A DNA stretch of 64,000 nucleotides from Eledone cirrhosa (taxonomy: Eukaryota), in contig OZ024741.1 of NCBI GenBank assembly GCA_964016885.1, forward strand, positions 137,888,001-137,952,000. The letters run 5' to 3'. The position numbers and the translations under genes are program-made. Each line of letters opens with the position of its first letter. Position 1 is the first letter of the stretch. Below, one piece after another: positions 857 through 55,962 of the stretch. The notes under the pieces were generated by a model, which saw nothing but the letters and a program-made list of their open reading frames with translations, had not been told where the DNA came from and did no database searches.

Positions 857-1071
857 GTGGTAGAACACTGGAAGGTGATATCCGTAGTGGCAGAGCACTC
901 AGTCCATGGGAAGAGTTAGGTAGAAGTGGTTACACAACAGTTAGTTCACCGGACCGAGAACAATTGTTTCACCTTAGCGGATCCTCAGCTCGTCTATTAC
1001 GAGCTGAGGAGCCGCTAAGGTGAAACAATTGTTCTCGGTCCGGTGAACTAACTGTTGTGTAACCACTTCTA
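857..1071. mobile_element. Non-autonomous PLE-type fold-back mini-element (family A) in (TA)n; inverted arms 921-993 / 999-1071
   Basis: Near-perfect ~73-bp inverted repeat with an extra ~64-nt tail on the left, (TA)n on both sides; related copies at ~17395-17512 and ~25783-26017. Confidence 0.8.
1000..1037 (+). ncRNA. Minimal type I hammerhead ribozyme (mirror copy at 955-992 on the minus strand)
   Basis: cgag-CTGAGGA-gcc(gctaa)ggt-GAAA-caattg-TT-ctcg: helix I cgag/ctcg, palindromic helix III, GUU triplet. Confidence 0.7.
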
Positions 1072-1108
1072 TATATATATATATATATATATATATATAT
1101 ATATATAT

Positions 1109-1917
1109 TTAGAGTGCGACAAATGCAGCAAGTTCTACGTAGGTAGCACCACCAGACCACTTCACATAAGAATAAAAGAACACCTCAATACTAACTCTTC
1201 CTTATTTCTAGTGAAATGCAAAAACATTGACAAAAACATAACAGTTAGCATAGAAACTAAGGAAAGAAACCTCGGCAATCTTAGAATTAAGGAAGCACTG
1301 ATTATAGACAAAACACAACCACCAATCAACAATAGACTAGAACTCAACACCCAATTTATAACTTGATAGAGCACCTAGCCCCACACTTACACCCTTCTCT
1401 CACACACACGCACACGCACACGCACGCACACACACACACACGCACACGATTACACCTCCACTTATTATCTCTCACACACACACATACACACACAAAGACC
1501 AGTTTTAACATGATAGAGCATCTAGCCCCCACATTTACGTATAGACATATCTTCTCACACTCACACGCACACACACACACGCATACTTACGCCTTCACGT
1601 ATTCTCCGACACACTTAAACATACATGTACAAAACCCCTTTTAAAGGGAGACTACTCTTTATCCACCTAACCTTCACTCTTTGACATTAGAGATAGAAAG
1701 GAATCTGTATACCATTTCCTGTCAGCATGACTTGGCAAGCTATTTAGAACACTGGATTAACCACTTTACTTCCCTCCGAAAAAGATATATTATCTCGAAA
1801 ATTAAGGATATTTAAATAAATTTAAGGTAAAAGACTAATTGTCAACAATATCTTTTGCATTTGCATTTATATTCTATATCCATACCTCCATTGTCTTGGC
1901 CTTACAACTACAAACGT
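1109..1917 (+). mobile_element. 5'-truncated Penelope-like element: GIY-YIG endonuclease C-terminus (1109-1366) plus 3' non-coding region
   Basis: ECDKCSKFYVGSTTRPLHIRIKEH...LRIKEALII...PPINN matches the PLE GIY-YIG pattern (YxG, R, E, N); flanked by (TA)n. Confidence 0.8.
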
Positions 1918-1979
1918 TTATATATATATATATATATATATATATATATATATATATATATATATATATATATATATAT

Positions 1980-2432
1980 CATTTTTTAATTTGTTTTGCA
2001 AGTTTTCTTATCTGAAATCGTGTGCTGAAACATATATTGTTATATTTGGGAGGGTTATGTTGCCAATAAAAAAACACACGCGCCTGTTGGTTTTCCCTTC
2101 AATTTATTATAAATGTCACGCTGGTTGGTTCAATAACCGGAAGGTTGTTTATATATTGTCAAACTCTTTCGTCACACATTCTGTGTGCCTCCTTTGTTCT
2201 GTCCTACATCATCTTCTTTTTGTGTGTTGTGTGCTTAGCGCATGCGTTACATCCTGCTGTGGTTGTGTCTGTTTTTTCTGTTATTTATTTATGTGTTTAT
2301 TTACTTGCCACTAGTTGGCTGTTTGTTCTATCTGTGTGTGTATGTGTGATTTGTTTTGTTAGTTTGGGATTTGTGTGTGTGTCTGTATGTCTTACTTTTG
2401 TCCTTAATTACTAGTTGTGATGTTCCTATCCC
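1980..2432 (-). mobile_element. 3' pLTR fragment of PLE family 2
   Basis: Diverged copy of 6803-7285 (gggagggttatgttgccaataa, tctttcgtcacacatt, agttgtgatgttcctat). Confidence 0.75.
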
Positions 2433-52928: not shown

Positions 52929-53122
52929 ATAATTGTTTGAATTTTTGCCACAAAGCCAGCAATTATACCAGTGCATTACTGGTGCTTTATTTTATCGACC
53001 CCGTAAGGATGAAAGGCAAAGTTAACCTCGGCGGGATTTGAACTCAGACCGTAAAGGGACGTACATCTATGCTGCAAAGCATAGCGTCCGATCCTCTACC
53101 GATACTGCCAATCCACCACCCT
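52929..53122 (-). mobile_element. MetaSINE-like SINE
   Basis: Full head, core and tail on the minus strand. Confidence 0.88.
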
Positions 53123-54105
53123 TAGAATATCAATAATGGAAATACAATAGAAACATAAGTGCTTTGATCAGATCTAACGATCGGTTTCTTTACCTTTTCT
53201 TCTCAAGATATAAATGAGTTATGAATTTAATTAAAACTTATCTTCATCTCCTCGTGCAACAACGTATGTACGAAATCTCCAGCCGAAACCAACGTATCTC
53301 TTTATAATATCTGTTTCATTTCACGTATATCTTCCAGTGTCCTATCTAAGAGTCCGTAATGGCGTTGAGAAAGGTTTTCTTATATTCTCTCATTGAGACC
53401 GTATCAGATTCGAAAACAAAATCTAATATATTTAGACATTATCTTGGTTTCAAAGTCAAGAATATAATTATCATTGATATGAAACAGGTTTCTCTGAATT
53501 CAGTATTACCTTGTATTAACTTCATTCATTAAGTTCAATGTGATATATTAGCCATTATCAAAATTATAAAGTTAGTTTATTTACATGAAATTATACAACT
53601 GACATCAATAAGTCCCGAAACGATATAATGCAACCAATTATGGTTGATGAGTTGAATGTTAATATCAAGAATATGTTCTAGTGTAAGACAAAAAGAGAAA
53701 TTCATGAGACTTAATCATTCGTTATTTCTTTTATCAAATTTATCTAAACCAGAAATAAGGCGGTGAAGTGAAAGTCGTTAGGGCTTTGGATAGATTGTTT
53801 CAGTGTATTCTTCCTGGCTCTCCGCCTTCTGAGTTCGAATTTTCCCTAGGTGAACTTTGCCTTTCATGTCGTTAATATAACATCCATATATGAACGTGAT
53901 TCTTCGTTTAACTCTCTTTCCCATTTATCCATCACTGTCAATATCTCTCTCCCTCTATCCATCTTCCCTCTTCCAACCATCTCTTTGCATCCATCTCTCT
54001 ACATCCATCTCTGTACACCCGTGTCTCTACGTCCGTCTCCTTCCCTCTTTCACACTTTCTCCTTCTTTATATATATATATATATATATATATATATATAT
54101 ATATA

Positions 54106-55143
54106 TGAAAACAGGGAGAGAGAGACGATTATGAGGAAGACAAATATATTTTTCCCTTTTTTGTGTGTCTCTCTCTCTCTTTTTTGGGTTAGTAAATGAT
54201 TAAAACGAAATGTTTTACTTTGTGTGAAGTCTTAAGGTATTAGTTGATTTATTTATTATTTAACAATGGCATTTATTTATCTATTTATCTATTTATTTAT
54301 TTATCTATTTATATATATATATATATATATATATATATATATATATATATATATATATATATATATATATTTATTTATCTATTTATATATATATATATAT
54401 ATAGTAATAATAATAAATTTGAAGACTAAAATCCAAAGAGGTCTCGATAAGGATAAATATATATCAAATATATAAGAACCGTAGAGCAAAAATTTATTAA
54501 AATAACAGATTAAAGTTTAAGCAAAGAATCGCTGCTTTCACCCTTAACGGGATCTTCTGAAACTAATATATATATATATATATGAAAACAGGGAGAGAGA
54601 GACGATTATGAGGAAGAAAAATATATTTTTTCCCTTTTTTGTGTCTCTCTCTCTCTCTTTTCTGGGTTAGTAAATGATTAAAACGAAATGTTTTACTTTG
54701 TGTGAAGTCTTAAGGTATTAGTTGATTTATTTATTATTTAACAATGGCATTTATTTATCTATTTATCTATTTATTTATTTATCTATTTATATATATATAT
54801 ATATATATATATATATATATATATATATTTATCCCTCTCTCTCTCTCTCTCTCTCTCTCTCTCTATATATATATATATATATATATATATATATATATAT
54901 ATATATATATATTTATCTATTTATATATATATATATATATATATATATATATATATATATATATATATATATATATATATAGTAATAATAATAAATTTGA
55001 AGACTAAAATCCAAAGAGGGCTCGATAAGGATAAATATATATCAAATATATAAGAACCGTAGAGCAAACATTTATTAAAATAACAGATTAAAGTTTAAGC
55101 AAAGAATCGCTGCTTTCACCCTTAACGGGATCTTCTGAAACTA
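54106..55143. repeat. Tandem duplication (54106-54565, 54583-55143) of flank + (TA)n + family E 3' end
   Basis: gaaaacagggagagag...cttctgaaactaa repeated, differing mainly in microsatellite length. Confidence 0.88.
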
Positions 55144-55962
55144 ACAATGTCAATCTGTAAACGCAGAAGTGGATATTTCAAAAAACGTTGCAACCGGAGG
55201 AAAACAGGAACACGATACTTTGGTTCGTGGAAACGTTCCCTGGCAGAACGGGAGAAAACGATAATAATACATCATTAATAGGAGCGGTGAAAAACAATTA
55301 CACGCAAAGACAGGACCACGTTTATGGTATAAAAGAAGTCGTAGACTAATGTTCTCTTAGGTGGTTCATAGAGACGTTCTCTGGCAATGAACGGAAAAAA
55401 CGAAGATAATACGTCATATGTGGACCGTGGAGAACAATTGCACGCAAAGACAAAACCACGTAAATGGTATAACTGAAGTCGTAGACTAAAATTCTAACTA
55501 GGAAACCGAATGATTCTCCGCTTCAGAGTTAAGAATAAAGTAAATAAAATACAATACAGAGGTAATTGAAATGAAATAAATACATACAGGCGTCCAAATA
55601 CGTACTTACACAAGCATACTCGAAAGCAGTCGCCATAGATAAACAAAATCACGCACATATAAATATGTGTGTTTGTGTGCGTGTATACGACTTCTTTTAT
55701 CCCATAAACGTGATCCTGTCTTTGCGTGTAATTGTTTTTCACCGCTCCTATTAATGATGTATTACATTCGTTTTTTCCCGTTCTTTGCAATGGAACGTTT
55801 CCACGAACCAAAGTATCGTCTTCCTGTCTTCCTCCGGTTGCAACGTTTTTTGAAATATCCACTTCTGCGTTTACAGATGGACTTTGTTAGTTTTCAGAAG
55901 ATCCCGTTAAGGGTGAAAACAGCGATTCTTTGCTTAAACTTTAATCTGTTATTTTTCTAAAT
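54982..55962. mobile_element. Family E long copy with ~275-bp inverted arms (55071-55343 / 55687-55962)
   Basis: Inverted arms visible; hammerhead-like CAGAAGA-tccc(gttaa)gggt-GAAA in each arm. Confidence 0.82.

Follow-up and report, generated by a model that had tools for sequence, protein, structure and literature searches.

Fold-back insertions of Penelope-like elements in Eledone cirrhosa: two fixed arm ends, used one each, and probable priming from both ends of the cut target

Introduction

A 64,000-nucleotide (nt) stretch of DNA from Eledone cirrhosa (Eukaryota; assembly GCA_964016885.1, 3.0 Gb; contig OZ024741.1, forward-strand positions 137,888,001-137,952,000), hereafter the window, contains fold-backs, each a palindromic pair of arms between two (TA)n tracts, with one arm flush and the other carrying an unpaired tail. 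They are 5'-truncated insertions of Penelope-like elements (PLEs) and of their non-coding derivatives in (TA)n. The arms end at two fixed sites, an internal one flush with (TA)n (S) and one 55-130 nt further out (L), the stretch from S to L being the tail, and in the fold-backs the pairing of one L with one S is near-absolute. The likely origin, to which we give a probability of roughly 0.8, is that reverse transcription was primed from both cut ends, at S from one and at L from the other, and that the two complementary DNAs (cDNAs) were joined head to head.

Parts of this picture are already in print. The fold-back layout has been published (Craig 2021, PMC8557442); the sections of that paper drawn on here describe, for endonuclease-bearing (EN+) PLEs, (TA)n targets, an inverted 5'-truncated copy, partial tandems and a 30-40-bp tail at one end, and leave the mechanism open. 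Likewise, the core of a two-start, both-strand mechanism has been published for the Poseidon PLE protein of Anolis carolinensis, which in vitro cuts and extends both strands (Frangieh 2024, PMC11167929). There, reverse transcription begins at two sites inside the RNA, and the sequence separating them makes up the tail; the start falls inside a stem-loop that is AC-rich, the targets are AT-rich, the protein is predicted to be dimeric, and the start sites, a few to tens of nt apart, are reported to be non-homologous to the cut DNA (PMC11167929). What is added here is the near-absolute L+S pairing, a significant TA microhomology at S and a stem-loop 3' of S. Neither L+S pairing nor TA microhomology nor a duplicated signal was found in the main text of Frangieh 2024 or in the sections of Craig 2021 drawn on, although none of them is claimed as unpublished.

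Two end sites and their pairing

Families A, B, E, H and P2 were sampled genome-wide, 30 loci each, by searches of the same genome with 67-106-nt body segments present in both arm types. The original prediction had held that the shorter arm stops at a family-specific internal position and had proposed a histogram of termini; run on these five families, the histogram is sharply bimodal, and S is fixed within each of them. The positions, given as coordinates (q) on the family reference, are as follows.

Family A: S at q80 (22 arms), L at q141 (24 arms)
Family B: S at q73 (30 arms), L at q150 (24 arms)
Family E: S at q613 (29 arms), L at q700-701 (25 arms)
Family H: S at q180 (21 arms), L at q290 (29 arms)
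Family P2: S at q1991 (25 arms), L at q2044-2047 (19 arms)

With small offsets allowed, 263 of the 283 arms end at S or L; these counts take in the window's own copies and leave out duplicate arms.

Head-to-head pairs, counted as adjacent arms that no TA tract separates, number 112: 88 of L+S, none of S+S, six apparently of L+L, and 18 in which the edge of the locus or a further insertion truncates one arm. Five of the six seeming L+L cases belong to family H and are tandem arms: beyond the inner L the next unit begins at its 5' start, and its own end, about 240 nt on, is S; the outermost ends are thus L and S. The sixth (family E, locus L099) is again an L followed by another unit's start, its outer end lying beyond the locus. 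Since unpaired arms are about equally often L (29) and S (34), independent choice would give L+S in about half of the pairs, and under such choice the chance of the observed pairing is 0.5^93, about 1e-28. Family C, whose arms were read by eye from pooled loci, has L+S in 7/7 fold-backs.

This strictness bears on the idea that two unrelated insertions landed head to head in one microsatellite hot spot. In its favour, (TA)n tracts are reused, the fold-backs of three families adjoining at 14982-16075 of the window, and one L+L pair, in block C3b, has unequally diverged arms. However, the arms abut with no target sequence between them, they are always of the same family, and 88 L+S pairs stand against 0 S+S despite near-equal solo S and L. 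Given same-family abutting arms and strict L+S pairing, independent double insertion is rejected and retains next to no credibility.

Nor is the asymmetry confined to the named families. A reference-free scan of 664 kb (the window and three arbitrary 200-kb blocks) returned 135 inverted pairs; in 71 of them a TA tract lies no more than 250 nt off at either side and the interior is free of one. These 71 divide into 49 asymmetric pairs, in which one arm is flush (within 4 nt) and the other lies 29-219 nt off (mode 80), 7 symmetric pairs and 15 of other form. The asymmetric-arm rule is general in this genome, because 24 of the 49 lie outside families A, B, C, E, H, P2 and X.

Two observations on arm arrangement stand apart. 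The blocks G000:C3:150000001-150200000 (74584-76317 and 113597-119127) and G000:C8:20000001-20200000 (22083-22635) hold inverted repeats with both arms flush with TA, up to 2266 nt long and 100% identical; they match no PLE family and may be another kind of element. In family B, locus L034 (G000:C10:16915519-16918585, at 1500-1850) is four-armed, with an S arm, an arm to q67, an arm to q85 and an L arm, the two middle arms meeting 3' to 3' close to S without an intervening TA.

Independence of the copies and of the two arms

Copies 100% identical to the query segment make up 28 to 40 of 40 scored in families B, E and H; the genome carries many very young PLE families, and their insertions are a natural record of hundreds of events. 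Junction coordinates, taken as the L-arm 5' end, the S-arm 5' end and the gap, are distinct in 85 of 88 fold-backs (A 21/21, B 23/25, E 15/15, H 10/11, P2 16/16). Only two pairs of copies share both flanks, one of them a local tandem duplicate and the other a duplicate 8 kb off. The original prediction had named random arm termini, or flanks shared through segmental duplication, as findings that would overturn it; the ends are bimodal and the flanks unrelated.

The same observations address the possibility that the fold-back is part of the element itself, a hairpin unit copied whole in the manner of a foldback element or a miniature inverted-repeat transposable element (MITE), or that the copies are segmental duplications. 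A search with the entire family A unit gave about 40 copies spanning positions 1-210, seemingly constant. That search, however, favoured look-alikes, and with a short body query the arm lengths and centres differ in 21/21 A fold-backs. Similarly, family B copies with 100% identical arms still differ in their centres, the tail means that the ends are not inverted repeats of each other, and the two pairs of copies just mentioned are the only ones with both flanks in common. Because the junctions are variable and the flanks unrelated, an inherited hairpin and segmental duplication are both rejected, and it is hard to assign them any appreciable probability. Foldback elements and the TA-targeting MITEs derived from Tc1/mariner have symmetric terminal inverted repeats, a constant interior and TA flanks. 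The present fold-backs resemble them in their short palindromic repeats and TA flanks but have, in place of symmetric termini, an unpaired tail of 55-130 nt at one end, as well as centres that vary.

The two arms of one fold-back are also independent of each other. Either may extend further 5', the S arm doing so in 30 of the 88 L+S pairs, and at L025, L028, L089, L090 and L135 the L arm is part of the tail only, with the S arm holding the body; the proposal of two separate 5'-truncated cDNA copies is thereby borne out. It could be supposed instead that the L-primed cDNA snaps back, turning at its 3' end to copy itself and joining the other DNA end at the first TA-like site. Many junctions are of the kind that such a turn might leave, since 20 of 31 in E and P2 are direct or overlap by 1-11 nt, the rest having filler. 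Against this, the L arms of the five loci named, and those of L100 and L108, lack sequence that the S arm carries, so that the S arm was not copied from the L arm; the longer S arms speak likewise, and three earlier TA dinucleotides in the family A arm went unused. Snap-back is rejected, being contradicted by the fold-backs with a tail-only L arm, and appears very improbable.

Twin priming of the human L1 element, reportedly described by Ostertag and Kazazian in 2001, is said to involve a second DNA end that primes internally on the element RNA, followed by head-to-head joining of the cDNAs with short microhomology; what is inverted there is reportedly a neighbouring, non-overlapping RNA segment, at variable sites. 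The fold-backs differ in that both arms copy the same 3' region, as is so in 88/88 L+S pairs, and in that the internal site is fixed per family.

Fold-backs and solo copies in the window

Window fold-backs were located by self-BLAST with (TA)n masked, together with direct reading of the letters. All those that the original prediction had listed (in A, B, C, E, H and PLE family 2, here P2) are present, and its solo ends are confirmed, the short ones at 25101, 46242 and about 50226 and the long ones at 1980, 17511 and 28345.

860-1069, minus strand: family A fold-back; L arm 860-996 (sense minus) with tail 860-922, S arm 997-1069 (sense plus), palindromic part 923-1069, (TA)n on both sides
1980-2341, minus: P2-related solo copy (66% identical), L-type end at 1980
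6580-6771, minus: family B fold-back; tail 6580-6659, palindromic part 6660-6771
6803-9660, minus: P2 fold-back, a 5'-truncated PLE; L arm 6803-8849 with tail 6803-6864, inverted S arm 8850-9660
14982-15420, minus: family C fold-back; tail 14982-15071, arms 15072-15245 and 15246-15420, palindromic part 15072-15418
15453-15684, plus: family B fold-back; S arm 15453-15528, L arm 15529-15684 with tail 15605-15684, palindromic part 15453-15604
15720-16075, plus: family H fold-back; S arm 15720-15780, L arm 15786-16075, tail about 113 nt
17391-17511, plus: family A solo copy, L-type end at 17511
17612-17899, minus: family n1 fold-back; tail 17612-17652
25101-25163, minus: family E solo copy, S-type end at 25101
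25787-26018, minus: older family A fold-back; tail 25787-25848, palindromic part 25849-26018
28186-28345, plus: family H solo copy, L-type end at 28345
28369-28587, minus: family E fold-back; tail 28369-28458, palindromic part 28459-28587
31799-31988, minus: family B fold-back; tail 31799-31878, palindromic part 31879-31988
37593-38277, minus: family n2 fold-back; tail 37593-37653
38468-39581, plus: wide family C fold-back; S arm from 38468 (sense minus), L end 39581, tail 39491-39581
45581-45835, plus: family n3 fold-back; tail 45758-45835
46011-46242, plus: family H solo copy, S-type end at 46242
48563-50226, plus: P2-related PLE remnant (69% identical), S-type end near 50226
54404-54565, minus: family E copy with L-type end, within the local tandem duplication 54089-54566 / 54566-55144
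54982-55962, minus: family E fold-back; L arm 54982-55682 (about full length) with tail 54982-55069, S arm 55683-55962
55992-61740, minus: element X, a PLE with direct pseudo-long terminal repeats (pLTRs) at 55992-57602 and 60302-61740, 98% identical

Centres vary within the window as well: those of its three family B fold-backs are unlike one another, and the centre of the older A fold-back (25787-26018) is longer than, and unlike, that of 860-1069, its right flank being (TC)n and then (TA)n. By self-BLAST, the palindromic match of the P2 fold-back pairs 6865-7669 with 8850-9658. Because the tandem duplication carried the outer 162 nt of E, the E copy at 54404-54565 is not independent of that at 54982; the duplicated unit has a period of about 578 nt over 54089-55144, with 98% identity, and includes a (TA)n tract and unrelated sequence besides the E segment. 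At 14944-16075 the fold-backs of families C, B and H adjoin with only (TA)n between them, one microsatellite having been hit repeatedly. Further, 13821-14016 and 14412-14607 are 196-nt direct repeats, 100% identical, each running up to a (TA)n tract.

The AT-rich window, in which 97 (TA)n tracts were counted, also holds about ten copies of a tRNA-related repeat of about 200 nt that resembles a short interspersed nuclear element (SINE), for example at 11365-11551, 22260-22446 and 33109-33293. One SINE-like copy (56928-57145) has inserted into a pLTR of element X and is accompanied by a target duplication of 15 nt (GAAGTGAGAAATAAT); the second pLTR of X (61241-61284) represents the empty site, giving an internal filled and empty pair for this insertion.

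Identity as Penelope-like elements

Most copies are stumps of 60-700 nt, and the P2 fold-back retains coding sequence. On the minus strand, its L arm holds a reverse transcriptase (RT) fragment (7956-8606), a CX4CXXC linker and, downstream of the RT frame, a GIY-YIG domain (7254-7607; PF01541, 24.9 bits, cut-off 22.6, E 2.6e-5), that is, a GIY-YIG C-terminal to RT as in EN+ PLEs; the RT fragment scores 18.7 bits against RVT_1, under the cut-off of 29.6. The S arm has the same GIY-YIG frame on the plus strand. As the coding frames run on the minus strand in one arm and on the plus strand in the other, both 3' ends of P2 point outward, as the original prediction had held for all families. For the non-coding families the same orientation is inferred because their outer ends are fixed, their inner ends are variable and the A, B and C tails are similar to the one at the 3' end of element X. 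At one locus (L077, G000:C1:264261598-264264665, 1621-2165) a family A arm runs 545 nt further, with ordinary composition, and family A is thus the 3' end of a longer element.

Element X, whose sense is set by its reading frame, has a YRDD motif seen by eye and a GIY-YIG score of only 17.6 bits; its relative P0033 scores 21.2 bits at the C-terminal residues 583-652 of 704, where the PF01541 cut-off is 22.6. The X protein has 158 relatives at E<=0.001; among the best 120, a few carry PF00078 (RVT_1) and most carry PF26215 or PF28514, and the PLE protein relatives include records of a cephalopod. A Pfam search with the long X frame gave no match at E<=0.01, and the RT part of X found 0 matches when searched against PDB sequences. 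The direct repeats of X are pLTRs of the kind formed by partial tandems in EN+ PLEs, and at its inner tandem junction, at 60302, the L end of the upstream copy is joined directly to the unit's 5' start. Similarly, family H forms head-to-tail arrays with a 522-nt period. The inverted 5'-truncated copy with a one-sided tail, a further EN+ PLE feature, is found in the 88 L+S pairs and in the 49 asymmetric pairs among 71.

Hydra and Neptune PLEs are distinguished, in the sections of Craig 2021 drawn on (PMC8557442), by a CCHH motif inside the GIY-YIG core and by the form of the upstream Cys linker. Read by eye only, P2, with its CX4CXXC linker and two Cys inside the core, looks Neptune-like, and X, with CxCx5Cx5C and one Cys inside the core, looks Hydra-like. 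Overall, the insertions share several features with the PLEs of Craig 2021, in those same sections: they target (TA)n, are heavily 5'-truncated, have an inverted copy on the 5' side, form partial tandems (the X pLTRs and the H arrays), carry an extension at one end only and include non-autonomous derivatives with a common 3' end. They differ in tails of 55-130 nt rather than 30-40 bp, in the preponderance of short stumps, in that L+S is quantified here, and in the UA microhomology and the stem-loop where the tail begins, neither of which was found in those sections.

The internal site: microhomology and a stem-loop

One representative from each of 25 families was examined for bases common to the tail and the S flank. 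Microhomology at S is at least 2 nt in 15/25 families, against 21% at random positions of the same elements (P=3e-5), and at least 3 nt in 12/25, against 7.4% (P=5e-8); the TA microhomology is 2-7 nt long. The original prediction had tied the stop of the shorter arm to such microhomology, and this much is real. It is not, however, what selects the site: in family E, 0/56 arms end between q614 and q699, though the tail has two longer TA runs, and this disuse, together with the 10 of 25 representatives that share no base, means that microhomology does not choose S.

Thirteen of 28 sequences have a candidate signal, a stem of the form [A/G]CTC...GAG[T/C] and of at least 4 bp that begins no more than about 16 nt past the start site; 500 shuffles yielded 2.1 such cases on average and 7 at most. 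The outermost base pair varies by family, being either A-T or G-C. The stem-loop lies just 3' of S and is common to the tails of X, A, B and C. The same module, with TAT before it, also stands 3' of L in the X junction (GCTC...GAGC) and at L099; the family H tandem junction has a 3-bp core only, 3' of L, and the module thus follows L in 2/3 tandem junctions.

Hammerhead ribozymes were considered separately. Rfam gave no match at gathering score, and at E<=1 no hammerhead was among the best 150 of 156 matches, which were only 'miRNA' look-alikes of TA hairpins; nor was there a hammerhead match in P2 at 6900-7150. A sub-threshold HH9 match at 39788-39857 on the minus strand (19.8 bits, gathering score 52) belongs to family n1, which also makes the fold-back 17653-17899, and helices I to III can be read in it by eye. 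By eye, too, CUGAnGA-helix-GAAA cores can be seen on the sense strands of C, P2, X and n1. Hammerhead cleavage as the source of S was rejected, the hammerhead-like cores lying tens to about 100 nt upstream of S.

Mechanism

In the mechanism that we favour, each end of a cut (TA)n target would prime reverse transcription, S serving one end and L the other. Both primers would probably use a single RNA bound in a single ribonucleoprotein (RNP), perhaps a dimer, and this sharing would explain why no fold-back uses the same site twice. The stem-loop immediately 3' of S would probably fix the start there, while the 2-7 nt of UA that pair with the (TA)n primer would do no more than help, and the L-primed cDNA would probably be completed by switching onto the 3' end of the S-primed cDNA. 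The twin-start scheme of the original prediction thus survives in its two fixed sites and separately truncated arms and fails in its choice of site by microhomology; its core is the model already in Frangieh 2024. As with Poseidon, and here on genomic evidence, the tail lies between two sites, a stem-loop stands at the putative start and the target is AT-rich. Unlike those of Poseidon, the sites lie 55-130 nt from each other and usually match the target over 2-7 nt of TA sequence, and each of the two is used once per fold-back.

Trimming offers a different origin for S: both arms would begin as L-type, or as a symmetric intermediate, and the endonuclease or host repair would cut one of them back at a preferred internal site. 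The wording of Craig 2021 (PMC8557442), in the sections drawn on, points this way; S is sharply defined and, being TA-like, looks like the (TA)n sequence that the nuclease targets, and strict L+S would follow if exactly one side were resolved. Yet solo S is as common as solo L (34 vs 29 unpaired arms), L arms shorter than the tail stand beside a full-length S arm, which two separate starts explain more easily, and in vitro reverse transcription begins at two sites without a trimming step (PMC11167929). Trimming is consequently considered unlikely.

Several points weigh against priming at S and L. The identification of S and L as start sites of reverse transcription leans on the Anolis Poseidon protein in vitro, the evidence in E. 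cirrhosa being genomic, and in that system the start is the same on the top and bottom strands and is not homologous to the cut DNA (PMC11167929); strict L+S and microhomology are not what the Poseidon system predicts. The loci were drawn from the 40 best-scoring candidates per search, which biases the sample to young copies. At S, 10/25 representatives share no nucleotide, several of them differing at the first position only. There is no such stem-loop in P2, in H or in roughly half of the families, and its covariation perhaps amounts to only one or two independent changes, the families being related. Six of the seven symmetric pairs in the reference-free scan are of no recognised kind, and there is one clean L+L pair, P2-like, in block C3b (36431-37820), although its arms, 77% and 91% identical to the reference, would fit two events. 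Finally, arm identities do not tell one RNA from two, because they are about the same within as between fold-backs (A 0.941 vs 0.931, B 0.966 vs 0.963, E 0.974 vs 0.979, P2 0.912 vs 0.913); an arm's own partner is its best match in 3.5/19 (A), 1.3/22 (B), 0.1/11 (E) and 1.3/15 (P2).

A more specific version of priming from both cut ends is put forward tentatively, the odds being somewhat against it. A PLE RNP, probably a dimer, might sit on one RNA at two copies of one signal (UAU plus an NCUC...GAGN stem-loop), which open the tail and the next tandem unit, and each half might prime from one end of the cut (TA)n, hence exactly one S and one L. If this were true, the length of the tail, which in X-type families is mostly 66-98 nt, would show how far apart the two active sites lie, and the need of PLEs for tandem pLTR donors would be explained.

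Implications

Only one in vitro system has been reported for the way in which PLEs build their tandem and inverted insertions. In the genomic record of E. cirrhosa, fold-backs take one end from S and one from L, their arms were copied as separate cDNAs, and a short shared RNA signal lies beside the probable internal start and, in two of three tandem junctions, beside the outer one. These findings are concrete predictions for biochemistry, and they provide practical rules for the annotation of PLE debris in cephalopod-like genomes.

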